Positions 9,064 to 37,736 of a stretch of 64,000 bases of DNA are shown here, piece by piece. The notes below the pieces were generated by a model. It saw nothing but the letters and a program-made list of their open reading frames with translations. It was not told the origin of the DNA and ran no database searches. Position numbers and translations under genes: made by a program. The stretch is from a phage, in assembly GCA_018027755.1 (NCBI GenBank), contig GCA_018027755.1_4098.1. One strand, given 5' to 3'. Every line of letters begins with the position of its first letter. Within the stretch, counting starts at the first letter, position 1.

Positions 9064-9077
9064 ATAGGACAAACAAA

Positions 9078-10521: not shown

Positions 10522-10529
10522 AAAAGATT

Positions 10530-13272: not shown

Positions 13273-13284
13273 CAAAAAAAGAAT

Positions 13285-13370
13285 AAAAAAAGGGATTGAC
13301 TCCGGTCAGTCCCTTTGCTATTATATACGCATAGACAAAAACTAGCCCACAGGGTGCATAAGTGTATCCA
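13285..13370 (+). repeat. repeated intergenic element, copy 4
   Basis: TTGACT-17-TATTAT plus core AGCCCACAGGGTGCATAAGTGTATC. Confidence 0.6.
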
Positions 13371-15266: not shown

Positions 15267-15472
15267 AAACTATAACACGAACCCAATCATACGGTCTTAT
15301 CTTGAAATACATGGACTTAATGGTGGATATCAGCAAAGACCTTCCTAAAACTGAAATTGAAGTTGCAAGAGCAGAGATCCGCATGTTGGCTGTACTGAAC
15401 ACAAACCATCAGGAAGATTATGTTGAAGAATGGATTCGATTTTTAATTCAAGATATAAAGAGTAAATTATGA
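15263..15472 (+). CDS. Fam-A paralog 3
   Basis: LNTNHQEDYV motif; ATGA overlap. Confidence 0.65.
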   Translation: MKTITRTQSYGLILKYMDLMVDISKDLPKTEIEVARAEIRMLAVLNTNHQEDYVEEWIRFLIQDIKSKL

Positions 15473-15684
15473 TTATTATAGAAAACTCATATCAATATAC
15501 TGAACGCATCGCTGCCAGACAACTTGAAATCCTCATAATATACGAAGAGACTTCTGATTTAAACTTAGCCGAGGTATTGGAAAATGATATACTATTGGGT
15601 GCATTCTTAGGAACAGACTATCAGAAGTATTATGAGGAAAAGTATTTGTCATCTCTTGAGAAATATATCAGGAGCAAATTATGA
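15469..15684 (+). CDS. Fam-A paralog 4
   Basis: LGTDYQKYYE motif; ATGA overlap. Confidence 0.65.
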   Translation: MIIIENSYQYTERIAARQLEILIIYEETSDLNLAEVLENDILLGAFLGTDYQKYYEEKYLSSLEKYIRSKL

Positions 15685-15893
15685 TTTTTTTAACACCAGA
15701 AGAATATAAGAAACGTTTCAATTCCGCACAGGGTGAAATCTTACTTATATACCTTTCAAATGCAGACCTTAACTTATCAAGGGTATTAGAAAAAGATTTA
15801 CTTATGGGTGCATTCCTTGATACAGACTTTCAGGTGTATTATGTAGGGGAATACTTAATTGCACTTCAGAATTATATCAGGAGTAAACTATGA
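15681..15893 (+). CDS. Fam-A paralog 5
   Basis: LDTDFQVYYV motif; ATGA overlap. Confidence 0.65.
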   Translation: MIFLTPEEYKKRFNSAQGEILLIYLSNADLNLSRVLEKDLLMGAFLDTDFQVYYVGEYLIALQNYIRSKL

Positions 15894-16117
15894 AACATTT
15901 AAGTAACTCCGAGAAGAATAAAATTATCGTTGCTGCAATAAACAAATATTTTACACTTCCTCACAAAGAAGGTTTATGTGTAAGGGAACACAGGATAAAC
16001 ACCACCGATAAACGCATGATGGCTGTACTGGGGACGAACTTCCAGGAAGAGTATGTTATTGCACACATAGTTGCACTCAAGAATTACATTATGGACAAAT
16101 GTAATGAACATCATTAA
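15890..16117 (+). CDS. Fam-A paralog 6
   Basis: LGTNFQEEYV motif; ATGA overlap. Confidence 0.65.
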   Translation: MKHLSNSEKNKIIVAAINKYFTLPHKEGLCVREHRINTTDKRMMAVLGTNFQEEYVIAHIVALKNYIMDKCNEHH

Positions 16118-16328
16118 TAACTTTGAATACGAGGCCCGTGCTAAGAGTGCCAGAAAAAAAGAGAACACCATTTACTTCACTATGATGTACTTACAATGGA
16201 CTGAAATTGAAGAAAAGGTTGCTGAAGTATGGATGTTGGAATTCATGGGGACGCAGTATCAGAATAGGTTTGCGGGTGAGTATATCAATGTTCTTATGAA
16301 ACAAATAGAAAGAAAGGAAAAGAACTAA
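16104..16328 (+). CDS. Fam-A paralog 7
   Basis: MGTQYQNRFA motif; internal ATG chosen (track start 16071). Confidence 0.6.
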   Translation: MNIINNFEYEARAKSARKKENTIYFTMMYLQWTEIEEKVAEVWMLEFMGTQYQNRFAGEYINVLMKQIERKEKN

Positions 16329-16486
16329 TGGTTTTCATTAACATATCTGACCAACTCGATACTAAACTAGAAGTCGAGCAGAGTGAGGGAGGGATGTTGT
16401 ACTTTCTTGGAACTTCTCATCAGAATTTTTATATCCATGAACACATAGTTGCACTCACAAATCTAATAAGGGATAAATGTAAATGA
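16328..16486 (+). CDS. Fam-A paralog 8 (52 aa)
   Basis: LGTSHQNFYI motif; below track cutoff; overlaps neighbours by 1 and 4 nt. Confidence 0.55.
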   Translation: MVFINISDQLDTKLEVEQSEGGMLYFLGTSHQNFYIHEHIVALTNLIRDKCK

Positions 16487-16740
16487 AACACTTGACGAAC
16501 GATGAATATTCACTTAGAATTCGAAAGCTCACCCCAGAAGCAAGAGTAATCTACGATGACGATGCACTTTCATGGAACGAGATGAAAGTTAAAGTTCATG
16601 AGCTATGGTTGCTGTACTTTGTGGGAACCCAATATCAAGAGAAATATTGTACCGATTATCTTGAACAACTAATGGATCTTATACAGATAAAACTAAATGA
16701 ACGAATTGTGGAAAAATATGAAAACTTTATCAAGCACTGA
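16483..16740 (+). CDS. Fam-A paralog 9
   Basis: VGTQYQEKYC motif; ATGA overlap. Confidence 0.65.
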   Translation: MKHLTNDEYSLRIRKLTPEARVIYDDDALSWNEMKVKVHELWLLYFVGTQYQEKYCTDYLEQLMDLIQIKLNERIVEKYENFIKH

Positions 16741-16969
16741 GTATCAAACTGCCCTCTTCTCCCTTCTAAACACCCTCCGCACGAACAATAAACTTTATAA
16801 TTCCCGTGAAGCTGATATCGTCAACGCTGATGTATATCTTAATAAATTCATAGGGACTAACTATCAAGAACTGTTCACTCTACGATATATCGCTGCATTG
16901 AGAAACGAAATATCAGATAAAACCCGTCAAGCCAGAAGAGAATGGAATAAACAATGCGACACAGACTAA
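16718..16969 (+). CDS. Fam-A paralog 10
   Basis: IGTNYQELFT motif; internal ATG chosen (track 16697). Confidence 0.6.
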   Translation: MKTLSSTEYQTALFSLLNTLRTNNKLYNSREADIVNADVYLNKFIGTNYQELFTLRYIAALRNEISDKTRQARREWNKQCDTD

Positions 16970-17205
16970 ATCACAAAATGTATTGTAAACTATTACAGAC
17001 ACTGGCACAGAAACACTATGACACGGTATCTGGAATATTACCCTATGATATCATGCGTTTACTTCACTGTGAGGCCGAGATGCTTGTACTGATGACTGGC
17101 ACAGATAAAAACGCAATTGCCAAATCTATAGATATGTTCATCGATGCACACTGCCAACACATTAGAACCGAGATATGGAGACGTGAGAATGAAAATCCTG
17201 ACTGA
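16954..17205 (+). CDS. Fam-A paralog 11 (divergent)
   Basis: MTGTDKNAIA in motif position; overlaps neighbour. Confidence 0.55.
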   Translation: MRHRLNHKMYCKLLQTLAQKHYDTVSGILPYDIMRLLHCEAEMLVLMTGTDKNAIAKSIDMFIDAHCQHIRTEIWRRENENPD

Positions 17206-17404
17206 GCATGAGTATTACAATAGGTTAAGAACTATACAAGGAAAAGTCTCGTGGACTTTTTTAGATAATTCTATTGCAGAAGCGGACCGATGTGTTATAA
17301 TAGCTGAAATGAAGCTATTACTCTTCATTGGGACAAACTATCAAAGTATCTACATAGACGCATGGTTAAGCAGCTTACGTCTGAAGTCGGTGAGTTTAAA
17401 ATGA
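17189..17404 (+). CDS. Fam-A paralog 12
   Basis: IGTNYQSIYI motif; internal ATG chosen (track 17144). Confidence 0.6.
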   Translation: MKILTEHEYYNRLRTIQGKVSWTFLDNSIAEADRCVIIAEMKLLLFIGTNYQSIYIDAWLSSLRLKSVSLK

Positions 17405-17619
17405 GAAAATTAATAGGTTTCGAATATGTTAAGCTTCTACAAACCTGTGGAATCAGAAGGAGAATGATTCAAAAGGATAAAAAAATTGCCGAAGAACGAA
17501 AGTATATAATGATAACTGAACTTTATGTCTTAACACTCTTAGGCACAAACTATCAACACACTTATGTAGACCTATGGATCGATGCACTACAGAAAGAGGT
17601 TAAAAGTAAATGCAAATGA
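17401..17619 (+). CDS. Fam-A paralog 13
   Basis: LGTNYQHTYV motif; ATGA overlap (track 17362). Confidence 0.6.
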   Translation: MRKLIGFEYVKLLQTCGIRRRMIQKDKKIAEERKYIMITELYVLTLLGTNYQHTYVDLWIDALQKEVKSKCK

Positions 17620-17828
17620 TTAATTTAAGTAAAGATGAATATTATGAACGTCTTGCAAAAACTTATCCAGCACGTAACGCCGTTTATAATAGTAACATTA
17701 TTGAACGCTCAAAGAAGTTGATTGTAGTAAATGAGATTAAGATGCTTTCAGTCTTAGGAACAAACTATCAAGAGAATGCTGTACTGTTGTTAATTGATGC
17801 CCTCCAGAGAGAGATACAAAGTAAATGA
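17610..17828 (+). CDS. Fam-A paralog 14
   Basis: LGTNYQENAV motif; N-terminus MQMINLSKDEY. Confidence 0.65.
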   Translation: MQMINLSKDEYYERLAKTYPARNAVYNSNIIERSKKLIVVNEIKMLSVLGTNYQENAVLLLIDALQREIQSK

Positions 17829-18073
17829 TTCATTTATCTTACCATGATTATCAAAAACGTTTAAATGCATCAAGGGATATAAGGATTCAAATCTTCAATA
17901 ACAAAAAATTGAAACCTGACACCAGAAGAATCAAAATGATAGAAGCAGAGTTATGCAACTTCCTGGGGACGAACTATCAGGCAGGTAAGGTAAAAAACTA
18001 TCTTAGAGAACTAATGATTTGTATCGAAAATAAATGTGAGGTTGATGAACATGCAAATGATCAATTTAAGTAA
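17825..18073 (+). CDS. Fam-A paralog 15
   Basis: LGTNYQAGKV motif; ATGA overlap. Confidence 0.65.
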   Translation: MIHLSYHDYQKRLNASRDIRIQIFNNKKLKPDTRRIKMIEAELCNFLGTNYQAGKVKNYLRELMICIENKCEVDEHANDQFK

Positions 18074-18314
18074 AGATGAATATACCGAGCGTATGACAAA
18101 AATTACGCACAAACGTAATACAATCTATCACAACCCAGAAATCCAACACAGTAAGAAAATGATTATGATGCGTGAGTTAAAGATGGGTGTATTCTTAGGA
18201 ACAAACTATCAAGATACAGAAGTAAATCGCTTAATCGCGGAGTTACTACTGGAAATCAGAGGTAAGCTGTACTTTCATCAAATGACCCAACCACTGAGGT
18301 GTACTGATCGATGA
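18051..18314 (+). CDS. Fam-A paralog 16
   Basis: LGTNYQDTEV motif; N-terminus MQMINLSKDEY; start uncertain (track 18036). Confidence 0.6.
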   Translation: MQMINLSKDEYTERMTKITHKRNTIYHNPEIQHSKKMIMMRELKMGVFLGTNYQDTEVNRLIAELLLEIRGKLYFHQMTQPLRCTDR

Positions 18315-18562
18315 ATGCGATGAATATTGTGAATAACATCAGATTAGCAGAAAGATTTGATAGAATTGGGGAAGCACTGAGAAGATACGATAAAGAATAT
18401 GGTCATTTGAGCTTTTCTATAGAAAAGAGATATGAACTTGAAGCAGAGTTTAAAATGCAGAGTCTCTTAGGCACACAGTATCAAAACCAATATATTCAAA
18501 CTTGGATTGATTGTTTAATCCAGACAATTTACGTAAGAAACATTAAATGCAAAATGAAATGA
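18311..18562 (+). CDS. Fam-A paralog 17
   Basis: LGTQYQNQYI motif; ATGA overlap. Confidence 0.65.
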   Translation: MNAMNIVNNIRLAERFDRIGEALRRYDKEYGHLSFSIEKRYELEAEFKMQSLLGTQYQNQYIQTWIDCLIQTIYVRNIKCKMK

Positions 18563-18807
18563 TATACTTAACCTATAATGAATACGTCGAGAGATTAGTT
18601 CGTGCCAAGAGATATACCAATAAACGTCCAATTGACCTAAACCAAACCCCAGCAGAAAGGAGTGCAGAAGTATTATTCCAATCACTACCATATCTTCTGG
18701 GAACTGATAGACAAGAGGAATATGTTGCACGTATGATTAGATATCTTAAAATCACTATTAAGGAAAAAGTAAATGCAAATGCAAATGAAATACTTAACAG
18801 ACGATGA
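18559..18807 (+). CDS. Fam-A paralog 18
   Basis: LGTDRQEEYV motif; ATGA overlap (track 18547). Confidence 0.6.
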   Translation: MIYLTYNEYVERLVRAKRYTNKRPIDLNQTPAERSAEVLFQSLPYLLGTDRQEEYVARMIRYLKITIKEKVNANANEILNRR

Positions 18808-19030
18808 GTTAAAAGAACGACTAATTAAATCCAGAAAACTTACAAATCAACTTCCAAACGACACAAACAAGTCACATGCCGAAAGGAGTGCAGAAGTTTT
18901 ATACATTCAACTCATGTACTTTCTTGGAACTGACAGACAAGAGTATTACATTGAAAGTATGCTTCGATATCTTAAATTCTCTATAAAGGAAAAGATACAT
19001 GCTCAAGAATTTAAAAATCCTAACAGTTAA
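18785..19030 (+). CDS. Fam-A paralog 19
   Basis: LGTDRQEYYI motif; start uncertain (track 18773). Confidence 0.6.
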   Translation: MKYLTDDELKERLIKSRKLTNQLPNDTNKSHAERSAEVLYIQLMYFLGTDRQEYYIESMLRYLKFSIKEKIHAQEFKNPNS

Positions 19031-19256
19031 TGAATATCATACGATTGTAATGAAAACTAATAGTGAAATTTCTAAAAAATCAAACCCAAAGTACATACTG
19101 GAACACACATTCGAAGAACGCCAATTAGCTCTAGTTGAAGCAAAACTTCTTGCACTCCTAGGAACAAACTATCAGGAAGAATACATCAGAAAACTAATAT
19201 ACCTTTTAACTAAACACATCAGGAAAAGAAAAAAGCATGAAGCACTTGACAGATGA
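18999..19256 (+). CDS. Fam-A paralog 20
   Basis: LGTNYQEEYI motif; overlaps upstream gene. Confidence 0.6.
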   Translation: MLKNLKILTVNEYHTIVMKTNSEISKKSNPKYILEHTFEERQLALVEAKLLALLGTNYQEEYIRKLIYLLTKHIRKRKKHEALDR

Positions 19257-19467
19257 TGAACATGGGCTTATAGTAATGGATGTAATCAACATCGAATACA
19301 AAAAGTTGATACGCTACCGTTGTTATGAAGATAAGCAACTCGTTCTAGCAGAACAGAAGTTGTTTCGACTCTTAAACACAAACTTCCAAGCACAATACGA
19401 AGAATCGTATATGTACCTTTTGGCGAGGAAAGCAAAAAGAGATTATGAAAATTTTAAGCAAAGGTGA
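19237..19467 (+). CDS. Fam-A paralog 21
   Basis: LNTNFQAQYE motif; overlaps upstream gene. Confidence 0.6.
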   Translation: MKHLTDDEHGLIVMDVINIEYKKLIRYRCYEDKQLVLAEQKLFRLLNTNFQAQYEESYMYLLARKAKRDYENFKQR

Positions 19468-19660
19468 TTCAGTAATATTACTTATAGAGAGTTCAAGTAA
19501 ATTCTTAAACATAACACTGTCTGATATAGATGAAGATGACAAAGAAGTACTGAGAGCAGATTTAAGAGTACTGTTACATATCGGAACAAACCTACAAGAA
19601 GAATATGTAGAGTGCTACATCAATGAACTTAAAGAATTAGTACTGAGAAAATGCAAATGA
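19445..19660 (+). CDS. Fam-A paralog 22
   Basis: IGTNLQEEYV motif; overlaps upstream gene. Confidence 0.6.
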   Translation: MKILSKGDSVILLIESSSKFLNITLSDIDEDDKEVLRADLRVLLHIGTNLQEEYVECYINELKELVLRKCK

Positions 19661-19878
19661 AAATCATTACCGATGCAGAATACCTAACAATCATAAATGG
19701 ACTGTTTTTGAAGCTCTTCGTCATTAACACATCAGATATACCAGATATGGATAAAATTATTAAGAGAAATGAAGTCTATGTTCTAGCTACCCTTGGAACG
19801 AACTATCAAGAACACGACATTAAAGATTATATTAATACACTTAAACGAGCGATTGAACTAAAATGCCAAAACCACTAG
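19657..19878 (+). CDS. Fam-A paralog 23
   Basis: LGTNYQEHDI motif; ATGA overlap (track 19651). Confidence 0.6.
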   Translation: MKIITDAEYLTIINGLFLKLFVINTSDIPDMDKIIKRNEVYVLATLGTNYQEHDIKDYINTLKRAIELKCQNH

Positions 19879-20078
19879 GAACAGCAGAATACATTGAACT
19901 AATGGGATTACACTTCTCATCCTTTCAGAAACTTATGCGAGAATCAAAGAATGATTTAGAATATACCATCAGAGGTTCCGATTTAAGAATGCTTCTCACC
20001 CTAGACACAGATTCCCAAGAGCGATTTGTCAATGAGCATATTAGAGCACTTTTAATGGAAATTCAAAGTAAACTATGA
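19863..20078 (+). CDS. Fam-A paralog 24
   Basis: LDTDSQERFV motif; overlaps upstream gene. Confidence 0.6.
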   Translation: MPKPLGTAEYIELMGLHFSSFQKLMRESKNDLEYTIRGSDLRMLLTLDTDSQERFVNEHIRALLMEIQSKL

Positions 20079-20290
20079 AGGTAATATCAAATCAAGAGTA
20101 CTTGGCACTATTCAGGAAGAATAATCACAAATATATGGCACTTGATTCAAGAACTGATATAAGTGAACTTGAAAAAAATCTTTTGCGTTCAGATATGATA
20201 GTACTGACACTCTTAGGAACACAGCATCAAGAGAGAACTGTTAATTCACACATAGAAATACTTAAGAAGCTTATACAGGAAAAGTTATGA
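20075..20290 (+). CDS. Fam-A paralog 25
   Basis: LGTQHQERTV motif; ATGA overlap. Confidence 0.65.
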   Translation: MKVISNQEYLALFRKNNHKYMALDSRTDISELEKNLLRSDMIVLTLLGTQHQERTVNSHIEILKKLIQEKL

Positions 20291-20508
20291 GAATCATAAC
20301 ACAACAAGATATTCTTAAGTTCACAAGGGTTCATGCATCTGAATTTGATGCTATATTATCAAAAAGTTACAACAACCCTTATACACAAGATGTACACTAC
20401 AATGAATTATGGGTGTATATACTTTTAGGTACAGATCATCAAGAGCAAGCAGTACAGAAGTATTTGTTAGCTTTACGTGATGCTACTGCTAATGGAGTAC
20501 GTGTTTAA
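20287..20508 (+). CDS. Fam-A paralog 26
   Basis: LGTDHQEQAV motif; ATGA overlap. Confidence 0.65.
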   Translation: MRIITQQDILKFTRVHASEFDAILSKSYNNPYTQDVHYNELWVYILLGTDHQEQAVQKYLLALRDATANGVRV

Positions 20509-20509
20509 T

Positions 20510-20752
20510 ATGAAAGTACTGACAGAACTAGAAATGTATCATAGATTTAATAAGTACTATCATTTACTTAAGCCTATACAGAGGATTAAATGTCCATTTG
20601 AAGAGAAACAGGTTTTAATCTATGAGCACAAGTTCTTTGTATCATTAGGTACAGATCAACAAGAGTACTATTTGACGTTGTACTTGATTACATTAATAGA
20701 TTTAATTTACTATAAAACCAAACAAGCTAATAAAGAGAAATATGAAAACTAA
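20510..20752 (+). CDS. Fam-A paralog 27
   Basis: LGTDQQEYYL motif; ATG 2 nt after upstream stop (track 20477). Confidence 0.6.
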   Translation: MKVLTELEMYHRFNKYYHLLKPIQRIKCPFEEKQVLIYEHKFFVSLGTDQQEYYLTLYLITLIDLIYYKTKQANKEKYEN

Positions 20753-21086
20753 TATACAACTCAAGGTATATAAATCATTTGAACATACATATATCAAAAG
20801 TAGTCTATGTAGAGATGTAATGGATTACAAGGGTAAGCCATTCACAATTACTTATGATTCTTATGTTGATGATTTATATATATCATTTGTTAATTACGAA
20901 AATAAAATATACAAGCACGTTGATATTAAAGATTTAAGTACTTTATCTGAAGAGGAATACTTTCAGGAATCATTAGTATGGGATTTAGAGTTTCCTATGC
21001 CATTAGTACATAAGATGATAGTACTAATGAAAGAATCTAAACAGGAGCCTAATGGTGATTATGAAGAACACACAGTTGAGTATTAA
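20742..21086 (+). CDS. Fam-B paralog
   Basis: motif EEEYFQESLVWD; overlaps upstream gene. Confidence 0.65.
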   Translation: MKTNIQLKVYKSFEHTYIKSSLCRDVMDYKGKPFTITYDSYVDDLYISFVNYENKIYKHVDIKDLSTLSEEEYFQESLVWDLEFPMPLVHKMIVLMKESKQEPNGDYEEHTVEY

Positions 21087-21456
21087 AAGTACTGATAATA
21101 TTAAGAGTTATACAAGCTCAAGTACTGTGACAATCGAAGTGAATTCTATTAATGCTGGTAATGCAGTAGATAAGTTCTTTATTGCTCAAGGGTACAGGAA
21201 AGATATTCATCAATATTGTTCAGTATATGGGGAGTACAATAGTACTGAAGATATAATTTATTGGTCAACACATCAAGATTATCTAACTAAAATTGGAGTC
21301 CCAGATGTTAGTACTTTATCTGAAGAAGAATACTTTCAGTACAGCTTAATATGTGATGTACCTATACCTTTAGGGTTAATCAAGGGTATACAGGAAGAGG
21401 TTCATAAGCTTAAATCCATGAGTAAAGGTACTTTCATTAGAACAGTGCAATACTAG
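21061..21456 (+). CDS. Fam-B paralog
   Basis: motif EEEYFQYSLICD; start approximate (track 21052). Confidence 0.6.
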   Translation: MKNTQLSIKSTDNIKSYTSSSTVTIEVNSINAGNAVDKFFIAQGYRKDIHQYCSVYGEYNSTEDIIYWSTHQDYLTKIGVPDVSTLSEEEYFQYSLICDVPIPLGLIKGIQEEVHKLKSMSKGTFIRTVQY

Positions 21457-28775: not shown

Positions 28776-28965
28776 TGTATTATTATGTGATGGGATAATG
28801 CTGATGAAAGAGTTATTTGAAGATCAGTTCAATACATATGTGGATAATATTCTTTATTCCAGCCGTGCTAGTCAACGAGGAAATCGTGCTTACAATATTG
28901 ATTACCTATTAGTGGTGCTGAGTTCACAGTACACCTACGCTGTACAGAGGACATATTATGAATAA
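28762..28965 (+). CDS. hypothetical protein (67 aa)
   Basis: track ORF; start uncertain. Confidence 0.45.
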   Translation: MLMYDVLLCDGIMLMKELFEDQFNTYVDNILYSSRASQRGNRAYNIDYLLVVLSSQYTYAVQRTYYE

Positions 28966-29161
28966 TTTTAGAGATGTTGCTAAGGAGAAGTTCAAGTGCA
29001 GTTTAGATTTTGGGTTAAATGATTTTCTGACATGCACAATGTACAGGAATGATGATTATGAGCAATCCGTAATTTCGTTGCACAGATATTTCGAAATAAT
29101 TTACGCAAGATATCTTAGAAGGTTAGAGGGAATAGGGGATTGGTATAATGATTACGTTTGA
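28958..29161 (+). CDS. hypothetical protein (67 aa)
   Basis: track ORF. Confidence 0.45.
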   Translation: MNNFRDVAKEKFKCSLDFGLNDFLTCTMYRNDDYEQSVISLHRYFEIIYARYLRRLEGIGDWYNDYV

Positions 29162-29384
29162 AGAACCAGAAACAATGAGTCCATATACGATGAAAGGTTT
29201 TGAATTCATGATGGATTCAATTTTGAAGAGTTCGTGTTTAGTACACAATCCTGAGCGTGCAACAGTGAGGGAATATCAGGACAATGCATTACAGCGTGTA
29301 ATGAATATGTACAGGAATACGAGTCGCAAGCTTTGTGCGTTGAAAAGGATTGAAGAAATCAAGGTTTCTAGGCTGAATAAATAG
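29148..29384 (+). CDS. hypothetical protein (78 aa)
   Basis: track ORF. Confidence 0.45.
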   Translation: MITFEEPETMSPYTMKGFEFMMDSILKSSCLVHNPERATVREYQDNALQRVMNMYRNTSRKLCALKRIEEIKVSRLNK

Positions 29385-29581
29385 AGACGTTTCATTTTGA
29401 CAGGCCGCAGGGGGGGTCAAAAAAATTTCCGCTGAAAAACATGCTAAGGTATATGTTTAATATAAAGTTTTATATTGTGTTTTTCAGAGTACAGTTCATG
29501 TTTCCTGAAACAAAAAATACCCCGCCGCCGAACGTTCTCCTTATATTGGAGTTTACCTTATTAATTATAGTAGAGATTAAG

Positions 29582-29959
29582 ATGGAAATAAAATATAATG
29601 AATTTTGTGCAAGGACATGGATGTACACTGGTGAGTTAGTTACGCACTCTAACTTATACAAGGGTGATTTAAACTACGCTAGGGACAAGATTTTAAAGTA
29701 CTGGAATGCTGACTTTTATTTGATGGATTTTAGTACTGGGTTTAGGGGTAAAGCAACCGAGATGTTGGACTATACAGTACTTGATGATGCTGCACTGTTT
29801 CAGGAGGCATTAGTATTTGATAAGAAGTACATCTGTACATTAGAAGAGATGATTGAATTACAGCGTAGTATTAAATGTATTCACAGGGAATGTATAGATA
29901 TCTGGTGCAGTACTGGTGAAGATAATTTTTGTAATCATTTCAATCTAGGGGAAGTGTGA
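29582..29959 (+). CDS. Fam-B paralog (three-copy sub-cluster)
   Basis: motif DAALFQEALVFDKKY; internal ATG (track 29441). Confidence 0.6.
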   Translation: MEIKYNEFCARTWMYTGELVTHSNLYKGDLNYARDKILKYWNADFYLMDFSTGFRGKATEMLDYTVLDDAALFQEALVFDKKYICTLEEMIELQRSIKCIHRECIDIWCSTGEDNFCNHFNLGEV

Positions 29960-30315
29960 TGGAATTTGATTTTTTAATATCAGTACATACTTTCAAGCAC
30001 AGTTATCAGTACTTTTGTAATTTAAACAAAGGTGATTTAATGCACAGTGCAAATGAGTATATTCATTACACTCAGGGTAAATTTACATTCATTGATTACA
30101 GTTCATTACAGTATCCACACCAAGATATGCCGGACTATACATTAATGGATACCGCAGAACTATTCCAAGAATCATTAGTATTTGATAAGAAGTACTTGTG
30201 TACATTTGAAGAAGTTATTGCAATACAAAATGAAATGAAAGAGTATGCTGCTTTGCATAAACCCAATGCAAGTATTAATCAAGAATACAAATTCAATTTA
30301 GGAATTCAAGAATGA
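29959..30315 (+). CDS. Fam-B paralog (three-copy sub-cluster)
   Basis: motif TAELFQESLVFDKKY; ATG overlaps upstream stop. Confidence 0.6.
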   Translation: MEFDFLISVHTFKHSYQYFCNLNKGDLMHSANEYIHYTQGKFTFIDYSSLQYPHQDMPDYTLMDTAELFQESLVFDKKYLCTFEEVIAIQNEMKEYAALHKPNASINQEYKFNLGIQE

Positions 30316-30671
30316 CATATGATTATTCTATGTACTATTATAAGTTACCTAAAGGATGGGACTTGTGCTGTAATCTTATTAAGGGCGACTCGGAACATGA
30401 GTTGAGTTTATATATGCATTACAAAGATTCTTGTTTTAAATTTATTCATGTATCACATGACGACTATGACTATGAATCTGAGAGTCTTATAGATTATACA
30501 GTACTGGACGATGGTGAACTATTTCAGGCTGCATTAGTGTTTGATAAGAATAAGTACTCCTGTACATTTGAAGAAATGGTTTCTTTGCAAAATGAAATGA
30601 AGAGATTTGAAAAAGAAAACGTATTTAATCCATCCCCATCAAGAACGAATAATTATTATTTCAATATATGA
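30312..30671 (+). CDS. Fam-B paralog (three-copy sub-cluster)
   Basis: motif DGELFQAALVFDKNKY; ATGA overlap. Confidence 0.6.
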   Translation: MTYDYSMYYYKLPKGWDLCCNLIKGDSEHELSLYMHYKDSCFKFIHVSHDDYDYESESLIDYTVLDDGELFQAALVFDKNKYSCTFEEMVSLQNEMKRFEKENVFNPSPSRTNNYYFNI

Positions 30672-30680
30672 GATTATAAA

Positions 30681-31175
30681 ATGACATTACAGAGTTCATT
30701 GGAAAAAGCAAAGAAGATTCATGAGTACATGAATATGGCAAAAGAAGGTTCAGTTTACGGTGTTTTCAAAGACACAAGTACTCAATATTATGTGCCAGAT
30801 AACCTCCTTTATAATGACTGCTCAGATACAGAAACGTGCGTACTGGATACAGAAACGTGCATACTAGATACCGACCCTAATGATTATGAATGTTTCATTG
30901 ATATGCATAATGAGTACATGGTCTATATTAATGATGCAGATATTACCATATACAGTACTGACTGCGATTCCGATGACATTATAATTCCGAGTGAAGTACT
31001 AGAAGGTCAGTGGGATAGTGAAGAGTATTACTTCCAACAAAGTACTGTATACGATGATGAAGTACTTGAAGTATTAGTTATTATGTGGTACTTTAAAAGT
31101 ATTGGTTCTGGGAACTTCTATTTCGATTACAGATACGTAACGAAAACTGTAGATAACGGTATTAACAGGGGTTGA
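30681..31175 (+). CDS. Fam-B paralog (MSLQS sub-cluster, copy 1)
   Basis: motif EEYYFQQSTVYD; N-terminus MTLQSSLEKAKKIHEY. Confidence 0.65.
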   Translation: MTLQSSLEKAKKIHEYMNMAKEGSVYGVFKDTSTQYYVPDNLLYNDCSDTETCVLDTETCILDTDPNDYECFIDMHNEYMVYINDADITIYSTDCDSDDIIIPSEVLEGQWDSEEYYFQQSTVYDDEVLEVLVIMWYFKSIGSGNFYFDYRYVTKTVDNGINRG

Positions 31176-31176
31176 A

Positions 31177-31647
31177 ATGAGTTTAGAAAGAGCATTAGAG
31201 ATTGCGAAGTTAATTGATTTATGCAGCAAAGAAATTGTAGCAAATTGTCTTAATGGATATCTATTCAAGGAAGGTAAATCATATTGTCGAATGAGATACG
31301 ATGACAGTAGTGAGTACATTCACATGTATGAAGAAAACTTAGATTCTTCTGAAACAACACTCAATGGGTGTGATGTTAATTTGGAAGATAATTACATGTA
31401 CTTCTGTCGTGATGCTGATATTTTAATACAAGATTCTGACATTATATCTGGTGCAGCAGAGAAACATCTTCCGTATTCAGTACTGGATAATGACTGGGGA
31501 AGTGAAGAGTACTACTTCCAGCAGAATACTATCTACGAGGAAGATGTACTTGACAAGCTTGTCATTCTGTGGTACTTTAATAATACAGATTGTCCTAGCT
31601 TCTATTTGGACTTGGATCTACTACGAGTTATTAAAGAGGATATATGA
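31177..31647 (+). CDS. Fam-B paralog (MSLQS sub-cluster, copy 2)
   Basis: motif EEYYFQQNTIYE. Confidence 0.65.
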   Translation: MSLERALEIAKLIDLCSKEIVANCLNGYLFKEGKSYCRMRYDDSSEYIHMYEENLDSSETTLNGCDVNLEDNYMYFCRDADILIQDSDIISGAAEKHLPYSVLDNDWGSEEYYFQQNTIYEEDVLDKLVILWYFNNTDCPSFYLDLDLLRVIKEDI

Positions 31648-32087
31648 GTTTAGCAAGTGCACTTGAACTAGCACACAGAATACATCACTTCCACGATAAC
31701 ATAAAAAGTGGGTTCTATGGTGATAAAGTAAGTGCATTTGGTGATGAGTATTATCTATCAGGTATAAAGACATACTCTGATGATATTTTACTTATGGGAC
31801 AGGATAAAGACAATACTATACAGTACTCTTCATGTAGTCAATATACTAATTTTTTTGTATATATTCCAGGTACTAAGATTACTTTTGACACAACAAATAC
31901 ACCTGTTGACTTCGGGGTACTTGATGGCCCGTGGGGTACTGAAGAGTATTACTTCCAACAGAGTCTCATTTTTAACCAAGAAATTCTTGATTCCTTGGTT
32001 GTGTTGTGGTACTTTAAGGAATTGAATTTTGAACCATTCTTTCTTGACTGGGGAGCATGTGAATATTTAAGTACAGGGGATTTGTAA
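31644..32087 (+). CDS. Fam-B paralog (MSLQS sub-cluster, copy 3)
   Basis: motif EEYYFQQSLIFN; ATGA overlap. Confidence 0.65.
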   Translation: MSLASALELAHRIHHFHDNIKSGFYGDKVSAFGDEYYLSGIKTYSDDILLMGQDKDNTIQYSSCSQYTNFFVYIPGTKITFDTTNTPVDFGVLDGPWGTEEYYFQQSLIFNQEILDSLVVLWYFKELNFEPFFLDWGACEYLSTGDL

Positions 32088-32575
32088 TGTCATTACAAAG
32101 TGCATTGAAAGAAGCAAAGAAGATTCATGAGTACATGATTATGGTACAGGAAGGTTCAGTACCAGGTGTATATAAAACATCTGATACTGAATTTTTTGTA
32201 AAAGACCGTGACGATTATGACGAGTCCGAGATATGTGCAGAAACATTAGTACTGCACACTGATACTGGTGACAGTGATAACTGTGAATATCATATGTACA
32301 ATCAGTACATTAGTTATTGTCGTAATGAAGATATTACCATCTACAACACAGATAGTGATGCTGATGACACTATCATTCCTTATTCAGTACTGGAAGGTCA
32401 GTGGGATAGTGAAGAATATTACTTCCAGAATAGTACTATCTACAATGAAGAAGAACTGGATGTTATTGTGATTATGTGGTATTTCAAAAGTATTGACTCC
32501 AGTAGTTTCTATTTTGATTATGAATATGTAGAGAATACAGTAGGAGAAGGTAATGTCATTACAAAGTGCTCTTGA
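32087..32575 (+). CDS. Fam-B paralog (MSLQS sub-cluster, copy 4)
   Basis: motif EEYYFQNSTIYN; N-terminus close to copy 1. Confidence 0.65.
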   Translation: MSLQSALKEAKKIHEYMIMVQEGSVPGVYKTSDTEFFVKDRDDYDESEICAETLVLHTDTGDSDNCEYHMYNQYISYCRNEDITIYNTDSDADDTIIPYSVLEGQWDSEEYYFQNSTIYNEEELDVIVIMWYFKSIDSSSFYFDYEYVENTVGEGNVITKCS

Positions 32576-33005
32576 AAAAGCAAAAGAACTACATGGATAC
32601 TTTGAAGATATAAAGGCCGGAAAGTTCAAAGAAGTGTACAAAGCCGAGAACGGTAACTACTACAAAGATGAAATGTATAATAACTCCGTTGGTGTAAGGG
32701 TTATTCTTGGGTTGAATTCCAATAGCCCAGTGTCGTATTCGGAATACAATAGAGATGCAGAATTCATTAGTTATGTTGAAAATGGTAGCATTCGTTTTAT
32801 TAATAGACAAAAACCATTAATTTTGAATTATGAAGTGCTGGATGGTCCGTGGGATAGTAAAGAGTATTACTTCCAAAACAGTACTGTATACGATGATGAA
32901 GTACTTGAAGCATTAGTTATTATGTGGTACTTCAAGAGTGTTAGCTGCCCTCGATTTTATTTGGATTTCGAAGAACTTCGTAAAGATCCAGAAGGTATAG
33001 AATGA
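32553..33005 (+). CDS. Fam-B paralog (MSLQS sub-cluster, copy 5)
   Basis: motif KEYYFQNSTVYD. Confidence 0.65.
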   Translation: MSLQSALEKAKELHGYFEDIKAGKFKEVYKAENGNYYKDEMYNNSVGVRVILGLNSNSPVSYSEYNRDAEFISYVENGSIRFINRQKPLILNYEVLDGPWDSKEYYFQNSTVYDDEVLEALVIMWYFKSVSCPRFYLDFEELRKDPEGIE

Positions 33006-33316
33006 AAAACTTATTCAGTGTTCAGTACGTTCCTGGTGAAATTGGTTTATTGTATCTATTTGACCATGATAATTCATTATTACTAGTAGTGAAGAAATGC
33101 CAAGCTAGTTCGTTTGTTGAATACATTCACGATAGTGAATACATTCCTGATTTCCTAGAGTGTGATTATCACGATGAACATGAATCATTTATTTTTCAGG
33201 AATCACTCGTTTGGGATAAGTCTATTAACTTCTTTACGTTAATTGAATTACAAAAGCAGGTGAAGTATCATTGGGATTACTTAATTACACAGGATTACAT
33301 TGAGATAGAAATATAA
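33002..33316 (+). CDS. Fam-B paralog
   Basis: motif ESFIFQESLVWD; ATGA overlap. Confidence 0.6.
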   Translation: MKNLFSVQYVPGEIGLLYLFDHDNSLLLVVKKCQASSFVEYIHDSEYIPDFLECDYHDEHESFIFQESLVWDKSINFFTLIELQKQVKYHWDYLITQDYIEIEI

Positions 33317-33624
33317 TGACTAAAAATGAATTTGATTCACTTTGTACGGTTTATAATTCATTGACAGAAATACCTGACTTTATTAATTACATTTCAGCTT
33401 TAAATCAAATTATGCATAGTTTTGAACAATCGTTTGAAGAGAAATATGCAGGTAGAAAAGTTCTATGTCATATGTCAATGTACTTGGGAGATGGTGAGCC
33501 TTACACTACCAGTACTACATGTGAAATAAAAAAATATAATATATTATTGGGCACAATAGAATTCACAGTATCCAATGGTGGTAGTTATATGTACTTTAGA
33601 GATGGAGTGGTTGAATTATTATGA
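33316..33624 (+). CDS. hypothetical protein (102 aa)
   Basis: track ORF; no clear family motif. Confidence 0.5.
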   Translation: MTKNEFDSLCTVYNSLTEIPDFINYISALNQIMHSFEQSFEEKYAGRKVLCHMSMYLGDGEPYTTSTTCEIKKYNILLGTIEFTVSNGGSYMYFRDGVVELL

Positions 33625-34070
33625 GTTACGAAAGTGCAATCAAGAAAGCAAATGATATTCTAAAAGTTGTTCAGTTCTTCAAAGAAAATCCTGAATACTT
33701 AGCTGATGAAAACCATGATCACGATGAGAGATTGAGACGAAAAATTGTCGCTTTATTTGACACTAATGCGGATAATTATAGTCTAATTGAGTTAGCATAC
33801 GATTATATTTCATTGAACCGAAACGGACATTTAGTTAATATAGAAAGACATGCGACTGAAGAATCTTTTAAAATTTCAGACATTTTATCCCTGAGTACTG
33901 AAGAAGGGTACTTCCAGGGTAGTACTGTTTATGAACAAGGAACGCTTGACAATCTATGCACATTCAGTGTAATATATCAGAAATCAGTACTGGATGTATT
34001 TTATCTTGACACTGCTGAACTGGATACACTAACCAATTTTGTTACTACTGAAGAGGCCACATTCGAGTGA
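33621..34070 (+). CDS. Fam-B paralog
   Basis: motif EEGYFQGSTVYE; ATGA overlap. Confidence 0.6.
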   Translation: MSYESAIKKANDILKVVQFFKENPEYLADENHDHDERLRRKIVALFDTNADNYSLIELAYDYISLNRNGHLVNIERHATEESFKISDILSLSTEEGYFQGSTVYEQGTLDNLCTFSVIYQKSVLDVFYLDTAELDTLTNFVTTEEATFE

Positions 34071-34603
34071 TGAAAGTTAACATCAATGACTTTGATGCAT
34101 TACAAGATTTATCAAAAAAGATTCGTATCATCGTACCAGTACTAAAAAAATGCAGTACTGGTTTAATTGATCCTAGTACTGTTGTTAATGAGAAGTACAA
34201 TTTTCATCGTGTATTACAGGGTACAGGTGCATTTCAGAAGTGTGATGTACGTGAGACACACGTAATTGATACATCATTGTTTTCTATTGGTGCACCTGTG
34301 TCGAATAATTCTATTTTCCTGGATAACGCAGGAAATATTCAACAATTAACATTTAAGAAAAGGAAAAAGAACAATAACATTGGTGTGTACGCGATGAAGT
34401 GGGGGCAACCTGATTTGAAGCGTGAAATTCACATCCCTAAGTACAATTACAATGCATTCGACGAACAGTGTTTTCAACTATCGTGTACTGACCCTGACTA
34501 TGCAATCATTCAGTTCTATATGGAATTGCAGATAGCATTTAACAGTAATTTGTATATTAACTTATTGGCAATGAACATCGATGAAGTATTCAAAAACATT
34601 TAA
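34070..34603 (+). CDS. Fam-B paralog
   Basis: motif DEQCFQLSCTDP; first ATG (track GTG at 34067). Confidence 0.55.
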   Translation: MKVNINDFDALQDLSKKIRIIVPVLKKCSTGLIDPSTVVNEKYNFHRVLQGTGAFQKCDVRETHVIDTSLFSIGAPVSNNSIFLDNAGNIQQLTFKKRKKNNNIGVYAMKWGQPDLKREIHIPKYNYNAFDEQCFQLSCTDPDYAIIQFYMELQIAFNSNLYINLLAMNIDEVFKNI

Positions 34604-34799
34604 TCGAATTGAATACATGAGAACTGTGAGTGCAGTGTGGGACATATGGTTCACTACTAAACCAAAAATGGATTACCATGACTTTAAGCTCTTGTTCTTC
34701 GTTGGCTCTAACAAACAGGATGTTGCAATGAAGGGTTATATTCAGCACTTACAGGAACTAATACAGAAGAGGGTTAATGAAAATAATAGACCAAGATGA
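34581..34799 (+). CDS. Fam-A-like gene inside Fam-B array
   Basis: FVGSNKQDVAM in motif position; start uncertain. Confidence 0.5.
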   Translation: MKYSKTFNRIEYMRTVSAVWDIWFTTKPKMDYHDFKLLFFVGSNKQDVAMKGYIQHLQELIQKRVNENNRPR

Positions 34800-34968
34800 T
34801 ATTGCTAAACTATTCAATATATATTCTACTAGAATGATGCAAACAGACTCATATAGTACTGAATTCAAAGAGTTGAAAGTACTGATGTACTTGGGAACCC
34901 AATATCAGGAACAAGTTATTTTGGAATATATTAATTCGTTGAAGAAGGATATCCGTTATGTACGATGA
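34777..34968 (+). CDS. Fam-A-like gene inside Fam-B array
   Basis: LGTQYQEQVI motif. Confidence 0.55.
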   Translation: MKIIDQDDIAKLFNIYSTRMMQTDSYSTEFKELKVLMYLGTQYQEQVILEYINSLKKDIRYVR

Positions 34969-35518
34969 TTTAGATCTTGCGTTTGAACGTATGGTAATTT
35001 TAATGCAATGTGCAGAAATGCATGAAACAATCCGTCGCACCAAAGGGATTGAATATACAAGTAAACTATTCTCATACGAAAGTCGTCGAGGGATGGATCA
35101 TTTTTACTGCACTGATTGTTCAAAGTTTTCAGTACTGAAATATTATCATCCTACTGTTTCCAATAATAGTTTAATATCCACATATGACGGTGATCTGTTT
35201 AGTGTAATGTATGACACATTACATCCATCAATTTCAATCTATAAAGATTGCGATAGTAGTTTATCGTATATAATTGAAGATTACTTATCTCCTAATACTG
35301 AAGAGAATATTTTTCAGAACAGTGTGTTGCATGATGAATTAAGTATAAAATGCATCTATATGTTCAATAAGTTAAAACAGTACGCCGATAATAATTACTT
35401 AATTGATAAGTTAGCAGTATTGTCTGTTTCCGTTTTTATTACAAATGACATTGATATGAAATACTATAATGAGATTTGTAAAGTACATCATATGTATAAG
35501 GAACTATTATGTCAATAA
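34958..35518 (+). CDS. Fam-B paralog
   Basis: motif EENIFQNSVLHD. Confidence 0.6.
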   Translation: MYDDLDLAFERMVILMQCAEMHETIRRTKGIEYTSKLFSYESRRGMDHFYCTDCSKFSVLKYYHPTVSNNSLISTYDGDLFSVMYDTLHPSISIYKDCDSSLSYIIEDYLSPNTEENIFQNSVLHDELSIKCIYMFNKLKQYADNNYLIDKLAVLSVSVFITNDIDMKYYNEICKVHHMYKELLCQ

Positions 35519-36111
35519 ATGCAAATAAATGTTGTAGTGCAGATGTGCATTTGTTTTTTAAGAAATTAGCAAATGATATTATATATATGCAGGAAATGAT
35601 TTATCACAAACGAGCGGATTTAGAAAAAGCATTAGTACAGTTCTCATTTATGCTTGATGGTGATATATTTCTAGAGAGTGATGCATTGCGAATAGTATTA
35701 GACAAAAATGCTAAAAGATTTTTATTTCATATAGATAATAAATTATGTTCCTCCGTATGTCGTACTTTTTATAATCGTGATTCGGACTTATATCAATTCC
35801 TTTATTCCAAAGGTGCAGTAGAAGCATCATATGGTGATGGTTATGCCCTAGGAAAGAGTATTCCATTTATGAAATCATTTAAAATAGAACACATCAGTAC
35901 TGATGAAGATGCAATGTTCACAAATGATATAACTATGGGACGTGAAGATGCAATGCGATATATTACAAATTCTATGCATACATTCTTTCAACGAACAGAA
36001 TTTGATAATGTATATATATCAAATGTAAATATTTTCAATGACCTGTGTCAGTACTTGAGAAGTGTTTGTGACTTCGATGAAAGTTATTGTAAGCTATACA
36101 CTGAGGTATAA
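35509..36111 (+). CDS. hypothetical protein (200 aa), possible divergent Fam-B
   Basis: weak motif HTFFQRTEFD. Confidence 0.5.
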   Translation: MSINANKCCSADVHLFFKKLANDIIYMQEMIYHKRADLEKALVQFSFMLDGDIFLESDALRIVLDKNAKRFLFHIDNKLCSSVCRTFYNRDSDLYQFLYSKGAVEASYGDGYALGKSIPFMKSFKIEHISTDEDAMFTNDITMGREDAMRYITNSMHTFFQRTEFDNVYISNVNIFNDLCQYLRSVCDFDESYCKLYTEV

Positions 36112-36116
36112 AACAA

Positions 36117-36479
36117 ATGAACACATTAAGTATTACATACTATACAACTAAAAAATTAGTTACTTGTTTAATATCTTTGAAGACAAACCATGATGATATG
36201 TTTGATATGGCTGCATATGAATTAGAATTATCAGAAGATGGCTTCAAGAGCTATGAAGTATATAGCTATGTCCGTGAAGATGTAATTGACACTACACTAA
36301 TGCAAGAGGATGAGTTATTCCAAGAAAGTTTAGTATGGGATAATAAGTACGATTGTAACTTTGATTTCTTATGTTTAATCCAGAAAGAAATGAAAAGAAT
36401 CTTTGATAATTATCCAATCAAACGTTTCAGTACTGCACCTGAGCAATATAAAAGGATTATATTCACCTATGAAGATTGA
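36117..36479 (+). CDS. Fam-B paralog
   Basis: motif EDELFQESLVWD. Confidence 0.6.
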   Translation: MNTLSITYYTTKKLVTCLISLKTNHDDMFDMAAYELELSEDGFKSYEVYSYVREDVIDTTLMQEDELFQESLVWDNKYDCNFDFLCLIQKEMKRIFDNYPIKRFSTAPEQYKRIIFTYED

Positions 36480-36846
36480 ATTTGAAGTTATTACATATAG
36501 TATAGGTGATGGTATCCGTTGCTATGTACAAGCAAGGCATATGGTTCCTGATGATAAACTGTCACCCAAAAGCTTCTGTATCACACAAGATCTCTTAGAT
36601 ATCAACGGAGAGTACAAGTACATATATTATCTTACTAAGGGTTATTGTAGTACACGTGGTTTTAATATTGTAGCTGTTTCTAGAGATGAAATTGACGATT
36701 TAACTGAGTACGGGGAAGAAGAGATGTTCCAGTACAGTACTGTTTTTAATGAACTGGATGTGTTTCTGTTACGAAAAATACAACACATTATGCAAGAATG
36801 TTTGCATCATAAGAGAGGTATTGTATGCGACGTGAATCTGAATTAG
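36469..36846 (+). CDS. Fam-B paralog
   Basis: motif EEEMFQYSTVFN; internal ATG (track 36403). Confidence 0.6.
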   Translation: MKIEFEVITYSIGDGIRCYVQARHMVPDDKLSPKSFCITQDLLDINGEYKYIYYLTKGYCSTRGFNIVAVSRDEIDDLTEYGEEEMFQYSTVFNELDVFLLRKIQHIMQECLHHKRGIVCDVNLN

Positions 36847-37166
36847 TTAAAGTAATGTACGCTACTCATATTAAACTACTACTTGTTAAATTTGATTATA
36901 ATAAAAAACATAATGATTTCTATACTTTAATTCGTGATGAAAATACATTCTCCTTGCGATGCAACAATATACCCTTGAAGATAAATGATTTTACTTCACT
37001 TGACGAGGGGGAATTATTTCAAGAATCATTAGTTTTTAATAGTAATATAAAAATTGATATAGAAGTTATTAAAAAATACCAGATTCTATTGAACAAAATT
37101 ATGAATTGTTATCCATGTGAAATAGGTGGTCATATGCAGTTCAAATCAAAAATGTATGAATTATGA
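36825..37166 (+). CDS. Fam-B paralog
   Basis: motif EGELFQESLVFN. Confidence 0.6.
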   Translation: MRRESELVKVMYATHIKLLLVKFDYNKKHNDFYTLIRDENTFSLRCNNIPLKINDFTSLDEGELFQESLVFNSNIKIDIEVIKKYQILLNKIMNCYPCEIGGHMQFKSKMYEL

Positions 37167-37173
37167 GGTTTAT

Positions 37174-37710
37174 ATGTTAGATAAAAAAATGAACTCTGGA
37201 ACCCAATATAATCATCTTAAGTTGGATACATTCGAATCAGCTATCAGTACAGCACAAGATATAATTGATATTATCAAGTTCATTAAAGAAGATAAGTTCA
37301 AATGTTTGAAAATACTAAATCGTTCAATGTACCGTGATAAAAATATTCATGTATCAGTACGTAGACCGAAAGATCAAGAAAGTGGGAGAGATTTCTATAA
37401 CAACAGTGAGCAGTTCGAATGTGAATATGATCCAGAATTTAGAGGTGGTTTCATGTGTTACAGTATGAAGGATACCTCACACATTGAGATACGTTCATCG
37501 AAAGGTGGCATACGTACATTAGAGTTTATTGATATAGTTTTAAATCAGGAATACTACTTTCAACTATCATTATTGTTTCCTGCATACGATTTAGGAGTTC
37601 TATTCATGTATAAGTACTTTCATGAGCACTGGAATGAAGACTTCTATCTGGACTTAGAAGATTACCAATTAGTTTGGGAAGAAATGGTAGAACTTCGCAA
37701 CCACTCTTGA
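37174..37710 (+). CDS. Fam-B paralog
   Basis: motif NQEYYFQLSLLF; internal ATG (track 37126). Confidence 0.6.
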   Translation: MLDKKMNSGTQYNHLKLDTFESAISTAQDIIDIIKFIKEDKFKCLKILNRSMYRDKNIHVSVRRPKDQESGRDFYNNSEQFECEYDPEFRGGFMCYSMKDTSHIEIRSSKGGIRTLEFIDIVLNQEYYFQLSLLFPAYDLGVLFMYKYFHEHWNEDFYLDLEDYQLVWEEMVELRNHS

Positions 37711-37736
37711 CACCCACCGATTTTTTGTGATATAAT
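37707..37736 (+). promoter_or_regulatory. internal promoter with extended -10
   Basis: TTGACA-18-TGaTATAAT; stem-loop CCCTTTA/TAAAGGG follows. Confidence 0.5.

Follow-up and report, generated by a model that had tools for sequence, protein, structure and literature searches.

How old are the tandem gene copies that crowd one end of a jumbo-phage genome, and are they still being made? The question is raised by eight adjacent genes at positions 29582-33005 of a 64,000-nucleotide (nt) stretch of phage DNA (contig GCA_018027755.1_4098.1 of GenBank assembly GCA_018027755.1), referred to below as the window and numbered from its first letter. A preliminary description, made from the letters alone, had taken these genes to be near-identical neighbours that arise by recent, ongoing duplication through unequal crossing-over. 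We show that the genes are paralogs of old standing with orthologs in related genomes, that each copy is under purifying selection, that gene content differs between isolates through repeat-bounded insertions or deletions (indels), and that one copy carries a micro-conversion. The best explanation overall is probably an old tandem family that evolves by birth and death, with ongoing loss of single copies and patch-wise copying between those that remain.

Results

The eight genes are diverged tandem paralogs

Eight head-to-tail open reading frames (ORFs) are present on the + strand where the preliminary description placed them. They are spaced by -23 to +9 nt and form a group of three (29582-30671) and a group of five (30681-33005); genes are named here by the position of their first nucleotide (Table 1). 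Within each group BLASTP expect (E) values range from 1e-14 to 4e-58 (database of 146 ORFs), and the identification of the eight as tandem paralogs therefore holds. The copies are not near-identical, however. The best protein pair (30681/32087) shares 57% identity, the other pairs of the five 29-43%, and the group of three 35-45%. Comparison of the window with itself by BLASTN, a counterpart of the dot-plot proposed as a check, returned no long high-identity repeat within 29582-33005. The best DNA match between copies extends over 501 nt at 70% identity, and no high-identity stretch of the eight-gene region is longer than a single 112-nt block of 90% identity (30992-31103). All 13 within-group pairs have a Nei-Gojobori synonymous divergence (dS) of 0.93 or more, up to saturation, with a value of 1.2 for the closest pair.

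The amino acid (aa) strings that had been quoted as common to each group are shared only in part. One of them, MSLQSALEKAKKIHEYM, is a composite that occurs exactly in none of the genes and is approached in two of them with two mismatches. A 31-residue string is exact in one gene of the five and departs from the remaining four by 4-14 mismatches, and FYFDY occurs unchanged in two genes. A 26-residue string assigned to the group of three is found without change in a single gene and differs from the two others at 7-10 residues. The long shared stretches represent mostly a conserved structural core, kept also in the Klebsiella phage RaK2, and a smaller share comes from local gene conversion. The sole truly recent duplication in the region is a 21-nt repeat inside gene 30681 (30824-30871), which is present in all aligned orthologs.

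The duplications are older than the sampled genomes

Used as a query, 29400-33100 matches 36 phage records, and in 31 of these the coverage is 80% or more. The best nucleotide matches (97-98%) are BF17, Salmonella SD phages, EC22.5-2, CRJP21 and PBECO4, and on the strength of these matches we assign the window to Asteriusvirus, that is, to a 121Q/PBECO4/BF17-type Escherichia coli jumbo myovirus of ~350 kb. Positional one-to-one orthologs of all eight genes, with 69-100% aa identity, are found in BF17, 121Q, PBECO4, G17 and Ecwhy_1; WPEC5, the sixth genome compared, lacks only gene 30681. Orthologs are much more alike than within-genome paralogs (at most 58%), the top paralog identity of the whole family being 56-58% in each of four genomes. 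The synonymous distances agree, with ortholog dS of 0.015-0.82 versus 121Q and Ecwhy_1 and paralog dS of 0.93 to saturated. Homogenisation by concerted evolution, in which paralogs are closer to each other than to orthologs, was looked for in these comparisons and the opposite pattern was found. Taken together, the one-to-one orthologs, the paralog dS and the low paralog identity place the duplications, as judged from sequence divergence, before the radiation of the sampled Asteriusvirus genomes. The same observations run counter to the claim of recent, ongoing duplication, no paralog pair exceeding 58% in the four genomes.

The genes belong to an array of ~35 members with an invariant FQ core

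All-against-all BLASTP links 21 ORFs of the window, and an iterative hidden Markov model (HMM) converges at 35 of the 146 ORFs, which are diverged, share one orientation and cluster within 20742-48910, as expected of a family evolving by birth and death. F-Q is invariant in all members, within the motif [ST]-E-E-x-[YF]-F-Q-x-S-[TL]-[IVL]. A long form of 145-215 aa includes the five genes and a short form of 103-137 aa includes the three; a profile built from long forms only reaches several short members at E values of 7e-9 to 4e-5. The same HMM detects 38 members in BF17, 35 in 121Q and 37 in Ecwhy_1. In RaK2, which belongs to another genus, it detects 26 members in a 50-kb stretch, all with the motif.

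The distal members 42772, 44268, 47058 and 48413 have collinear best matches in RaK2, which marks the array as ancient and syntenic. The three and the five, by contrast with any RaK2 protein, score far higher against each other, so that the neighbours are, as the preliminary description held, each other's closest relatives. By these scores the eight-gene region comprises the relatively youngest sub-clusters, which appear to have formed after the Asteriusvirus/Alcyoneusvirus split. The picture of younger duplicates beside older ones is thus retained in a relative sense, the three and the five being the youngest parts of an older array, but the duplications themselves are not recent.

More widely, an exhaustive profile search of 1.8 billion representatives returned 116 clusters at E of 1e-3 or below, nearly all of which carry EExYFQxS. 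Ten clusters were looked up: RaK2-type Klebsiella phages make up one, another is of Asteriusvirus type (phage A4 and E. coli assemblies), and the other eight hold only metagenomic or Logan sequences. Searches of GenBank phages by tblastn with two distant representatives found nothing, and a third pointed to RaK2-type phages.

A conversion patch in gene 30681

Similarity between copies is distributed unevenly. Genes 30681 and 32553 have 91-96% nucleotide identity over codons 104-140 and ~45% elsewhere, and genes 30681 and 32087 have 89% across codons 1-25. Codon bias accounts for a good part of this. Shared degenerate residues of the 30681/32553 block use the same codon in 23 of 27 cases; for other pairs the figure is 112 of 177 (Fisher p=0.018). 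More telling are the private substitutions of gene 30681, defined as those that distinguish the window copy from its five orthologs: most of them lie in a patch at 31070-31079 that is shared only by CRJP21 among 33 records, and they match the paralog (Table 1). This pattern indicates a micro gene conversion from 32553 to 30681.

Single members appear to be lost or replaced, in two cases between direct repeats

Larger differences between isolates concern whole genes. A 529-589-bp unit lies between genes 29582 and 29959 in 13 records (BF17, 121Q, G17, CRJP21 and nine others) and contains a decayed short ORF and one extra diverged family member. The first 27 residues of the decayed ORF are the same as in gene 29959; in 121Q it retains KEFQNS, and in BF17 it falls 63 nt short of that length. 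A direct repeat of 82-85 nt (82/85 identical) brackets the unit in BF17, while the window, which lacks the 529-bp unit, has the exact recombinant junction at 29957-30038. The downstream flank of the window is 100.00% identical over 631 nt to that of insert-bearing BF17, 99.84% to G17 and 98.57% to insert-less PBECO4. An S/T site in the 85-nt repeat is polymorphic in both copies among genomes and so fixes neither the crossover point nor the direction of the event. We infer that the 529-bp difference is a deletion in the lineage of this phage. As CRJP21 shares the 30681 haplotype of the window yet retains the unit, the deletion appears to be later than the conversion patch, and recent.

Counting this unit, the window differs from BF17 and 121Q by four whole-gene indels within 30 kb. 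A gene that BF17 has in addition is bounded by a 173-nt repeat that corresponds to the near-identical ends of two neighbours with 43% identity overall (BF17 9605-10159 and 10243-10749), in which 19 of 22 N-terminal and 13 of 14 C-terminal residues are identical and the middle has diverged. Window gene 36469-36846 is absent from BF17, and 21052-21456 is absent from 121Q. Gene 30681 is missing from WPEC5 and about six other records, and in WPEC5 a further short-form paralog occupies that position. Copy-number differences of the kind anticipated by the preliminary description do therefore exist, but they do not consist of extra young copies. Because the polymorphic units are old, diverged genes with at most 43% identity to their neighbours, we read the differences as losses or replacements.

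Identity to single relatives also jumps from gene to gene across 28800-33005 (for BF17 from 100% to 95.6% and then 99.9%), a pattern that speaks for fine-scale mosaic recombination among Asteriusvirus genomes.

Predicted structure and selection

Searches of Pfam, NCBIfam and PDB sequences gave no meaningful match to the proteins. The five genes match phrog_9317 (E 2e-55 to 4e-66) and the three match phrog_15629 (E 8e-60 to 3e-56), in each case over nearly the whole profile, and cross-matches link them to phrog_12674 and phrog_13866; all four PHROGs are labelled 'unknown function'. The superfamily is thus split there into many families, and the FQ motif, the common fold and the ~35 copies are not recorded.

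The AlphaFold2 (AF2) model of the long form (gene 32087; predicted local distance difference test score, pLDDT, 90.0; predicted template modelling score, pTM, 0.85) consists of an N-terminal helix, a seven-strand β region, the FQ helix, a long helix, a strand and a C-terminal helix. The short form (gene 29959; pLDDT 86.3, pTM 0.82) is predicted to have the same order of elements minus the N- and C-terminal helices. No fold match to the models was found among solved structures, and BFVD returned only uncharacterised proteins, from 121Q, RaK2, Serratia BF, Yersinia Yen9-03/04 and GAP32. Most members are acidic (isoelectric point, pI, 4-5).

The pooled ratio of nonsynonymous to synonymous divergence (dN/dS) between orthologs is ~0.30 (range 0.04-0.72), consistent with purifying selection on each retained copy. 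It is even along the protein, at 0.24-0.26 for the N-terminal, middle and C-terminal parts. Diversifying selection on the variable middle of the long form was considered and rejected, dN/dS there being 0.25 as at the ends.

A reading of EExYFQ(G/S) as a protease site was likewise rejected. The motif lies in a predicted helix (model residues 109-115), in most members the residue next to Q on its C-terminal side is neither G nor S, and no link to a protease was found. The recognition consensus of tobacco etch virus (TEV) protease is E-x-x-Y-x-Q-(G/S), and one member, 33621-34070 with the motif STEEGYFQGS, fits it. The fit is probably a coincidence, and is a practical caveat for work with TEV-cleavable tags.

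Position in the genome and presence in virions

In vB_Ec-M-J a direct terminal repeat is annotated at 1-21,525, and its inner boundary corresponds to window position ~14,770. Window 1 to ~14770 accordingly lies within the direct terminal repeat of the genome, and the boundary puts the start of the window ~7 kb from the physical genome end. The terminal repeat of Sharanji is reported to measure 20,668 bp (PMC11895373). The eight-gene region lies ~15-18 kb inward of the (left) terminal-repeat boundary. Nearly all ORFs of the window (142 of 146) are on the + strand and read inward, and GC skew is positive throughout.

Sigma70 consensus matches occur in two of the rare intergenic gaps. One at 37707-37736 is perfect (TTGACA-18-TATAAT, 12/12, with an upstream TG), and one at 21458-21486 matches at 11 of 12 positions.

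Published proteomes of relatives bear on whether the proteins are packaged. The 62 virion proteins of phAPEC6 include none numbered between gp347 and gp549, and a homolog of the five genes in that phage is gp442c. The RaK2 paper assigns all detected structural proteins to two clusters that are given by size only (~82 kb and ~20 kb), and lists structural ORFs from bioinformatic annotation as 038-139 and 527-533; the RaK2 array lies outside these listed ORFs. We infer from these proteomes that the family proteins are non-virion. The same paper states that paralogues account for nearly 10% of the RaK2 gene products, and the literature searched holds no description of the FQ-motif family beyond this generic remark.

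Other features of the region

Genes 29582 to 37710 are packed with nearly no gaps. The ORF of gene 29582 is open from 29441, and its start in relatives is placed at the equivalent of 29582 (PBECO4) or of 29621 (BF17 and 121Q). Downstream of the eight genes, a 102-aa unrelated ORF separates 33002-33316 from 33621-34070; Ecwhy_1 and WPEC5 have another long-form member there instead.

Table 1. Features of the eight-gene region and of the array that contains it (window coordinates).
Position	Strand	Feature	Basis or comment
20742-48910	+	Whole superfamily array, ~35 ORFs	Iterative HMM; few unrelated small ORFs interspersed
29385-29581	+	Intergenic gap upstream of the eight-gene block	Candidate promoter (promoter-like TTGACA-18-AAAAAT at 29397-29426)
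29582-29959	+	Short-form member 1, group of three	phrog_15629, E 9e-59
29957-30038	+	Single copy of the 82-85-nt segment (5' end of gene 29959)	Doubled in BF17, 121Q, G17, CRJP21 and others
29959-30315	+	Short-form member 2	phrog_15629, E 3e-56; AF2 pLDDT 86, pTM 0.82
30312-30671	+	Short-form member 3	phrog_15629, E 8e-60
30681-31175	+	Long-form member, closest paralog of 32087-32575 (57% aa)	BLASTP
30824-30871	+	In-frame 21-nt tandem repeat inside gene 30681	2.3 copies, 88% matches, DTETCVL/DTETCIL
30992-31103	+	112-nt block, 90.2% identical to 32831-32942	Covers the EEYYFQ..WYFKS core
31070-31079	+	Micro gene-conversion patch, gene 30681	6/8 private substitutions, all as in paralog 32553
31177-31647	+	Long-form member	phrog_9317, E 6e-59
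31644-32087	+	Long-form member	phrog_9317, E 2e-55
32087-32575	+	Long-form member, source of the structure model	AF2
32553-33005	+	Long-form member, donor-type sequence for the conversion patch	Alignment
33002-34070	+	Next array members: short form 33002-33316, long form 33621-34070	Family HMM

Elsewhere in the window, a second, separate paralog family of 25 tandem ORFs (63-90 aa, linked by BLASTP) occupies 14872-20752 plus 34581-34968 and begins right at the inner boundary of the terminal repeat. The terminal repeat itself contains dispersed repeats of 90-230 nt with 75-93% identity (3575-3802, 7252-7441, 10520-10749 and 13276-13368, and also 1291-1395, 1585-1689 and 4440-4548). By their coordinates they lie mostly between called ORFs, and they may be reiterated regulatory elements. 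About 190 nt at ~11811-12005 have 88-90% identity to the otherwise unrelated E. coli phages EduardKellenberger, ECP26 and S127 BCL3, and a 9000-13000 query also matched six Campylobacter phage records. ORF 9937-10521 has a sub-threshold protein-kinase match, at a place where a Ser/Thr kinase is annotated in relatives, and ORF 54226-55011 contains a CapR-homology domain (E 1e-16). Scanning the window for Rfam families and tRNAs gave no matches.

Discussion

What kind of process maintains the array

The account that we consider probable, an old birth-and-death family with continuing single-copy loss and patch-wise copying, would run as follows. Serial tandem duplication long ago would have built the array of ~28 kb from ~35 paralogs of one jumbo-phage-specific family, presumably by unequal crossing-over. 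That mechanism, as named in the preliminary description, is borne out to the extent that non-allelic recombination is seen in the repeat-bounded indels and the conversion patch, and its part in the origin of the array is conjectural. The three- and five-gene sub-clusters would have arisen after the split from RaK2-type phages and before the sampled Asteriusvirus genomes diverged, each copy since being retained as its own gene under purifying selection, in a course of birth and death with subfunctionalisation. Similar gene ends and the conserved FQ core would serve as substrates for non-allelic homologous recombination, which at present would delete or replace single units flanked by direct repeats of 82-173 nt and would leave very short conversion patches. 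Such recombination would yield no new near-identical copies.

Several alternatives lead to different expectations for the same data. Were recent and continuing unequal crossing-over, in the manner of a genomic accordion, to keep the copies near-identical, one would point to the head-to-tail tandem layout, to copy numbers that differ among isolates and to the one 112-nt block with 90% identity. This is nevertheless very unlikely, given that the best pair reaches 57% in protein and 70% in nucleotides with dS of at least 0.93, that one-to-one orthologs are present in five of six genomes (the sixth lacking one gene) with no pair above 58% in four genomes, and that the polymorphic units are themselves old and diverged. 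It is also unlikely, if less strongly so, that purifying selection on a structural core is at work with no exchange between copies, the isolate differences then coming from recombination between phages. EExYFQxS is indeed conserved in RaK2 and in the 116 distant cluster representatives, and ortholog divergence is a mosaic by gene (dS 0.02 to 0.82), indicating that alleles are exchanged between phages. Selection on the core would however leave unexplained why six private substitutions within 10 nt all match a paralog (chance of such clustering ~1e-6 by our own arithmetic), why indel junctions coincide exactly with direct repeats of paralogous gene ends, and why identical codons are in excess in the 30681/32553 block.

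Tandem paralog sets of internal virion proteins are known from phiKZ-like phages and from the internal proteins of T4, and a small acidic paralogous set might be taken for packaged proteins of the internal head or of an inner body, a structure that phAPEC6 possesses. We regard this as highly improbable: none of the 62 phAPEC6 virion proteins falls in this gene range, the listed RaK2 structural ORFs are outside its array, and the array adjoins the terminal repeat among small ORFs of unknown function, far from the structural modules. The chance that the array is an assembly artefact or a set of spurious ORFs, for which no supporting evidence was found, is negligible, with the arrangement present in at least 31 records from different laboratories, dN/dS of ~0.3 and confident AF2 models. 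Collapsed or chimeric repeats, which the preliminary description had named as the finding that would undo it, are excluded by the occurrence of the same arrangement in more than 30 independently sequenced genomes and by copies too different to collapse.

Some observations weigh against parts of the account we favour. A long conversion tract has modest support (p=0.018); codon bias alone gives ~60% identical codons. The most divergent lineages, Ecwhy_1 and WPEC5, also have no 529-bp unit, so that an old insertion of the unit followed by lateral exchange is possible. Among the three genes, the long-form profile matches only 29959 (E 1.4e-4); the direct hhalign comparison of three and five is weak (E 0.032) with the register correct, and their shared fold is read from a matching order of secondary-structure elements in two AF2 models. 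As the direct profile-profile comparison is weak, we hold the common origin of the three and the five to be probable. With regard to function, consensus promoters are not enriched overall, early timing being deduced from position and from such promoters, and the orthologs are without the diversifying selection that an arms-race role might predict.

What the proteins may do

Birth and death describes how the genes evolve and leaves a choice of roles. The proximity to the terminal repeat, the sigma70-type consensus matches in gaps, the small acidic products and their absence from virion proteomes lead us to a tentative proposal, to which we give somewhat less than an even chance, that these are small acidic non-virion proteins, probably early, which share a new α/β scaffold and each bind their own host or defence target. 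A bolder form of the idea, which we think rather unlikely, is that the ~35-member FQ family constitutes a diversified early arsenal on a new fold for RaK2/121Q-type jumbo phages, each paralog neutralising or hijacking its own host or defence protein. The gene ends and FQ core would then be handles for recombination through which single cassettes are lost, exchanged or rebuilt, and what the array contains would follow the defence repertoire of the host.

Several consequences follow for the use of the locus. Because the claim of duplication caught in the act fails, the region is no model for watching gene amplification. Its value is instead as a natural case, and a clean one, of a virulent phage in which genes are lost through repeats and micro-conversion occurs. 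One uncharacterised family, with a confident predicted fold that has no solved-structure match, takes up about 8% of a 350-kb genome. Conservation of the array extends over at least two genera of jumbo phages (Asteriusvirus and Alcyoneusvirus), and its gene content varies between 98%-identical isolates. The family thereby offers a defined set of targets for deletion and host-range work in phages under development for therapy.

Comparison with known systems

Birth-and-death multigene families are well known from large DNA viruses, and the array is an ordinary one of these; it is the protein family itself that is uncharacterised. The MGF360, MGF505 and MGF110 families of African swine fever virus (ASFV) and the terminal host-range families of poxviruses are diverged same-orientation tandem paralogs near a genome end that evolve by birth and death and are non-structural. 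Our array resembles them in its tandem diverged paralogs near an end and in the gain and loss of whole genes between isolates. It differs in that those viruses are eukaryotic and their proteins unrelated, and in that host-range or immune-evasion functions have been demonstrated for them and are conjectured for the array. The poxvirus genomic accordion, exemplified by K3L amplification, produces near-identical copies within a few passages; it shares with the present locus tandem copies and recombination-driven changes in copy number, whereas the copies of the array are at most 58% identical and saturated at synonymous sites.

Among phages, the plastic and hyperplastic regions of T4-type genomes are blocks of small, probably early genes of unknown function; they lie beside a conserved core and differ between close relatives. 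They consist mostly of unrelated ORFans and, unlike the array described here, are not one family expanded ~35-fold. Jumbo phages are recognised for carrying large paralog families, and the paralogue statement made for RaK2 very probably includes the FQ family, which is not a zinc ribbon and has no recognisable domain.

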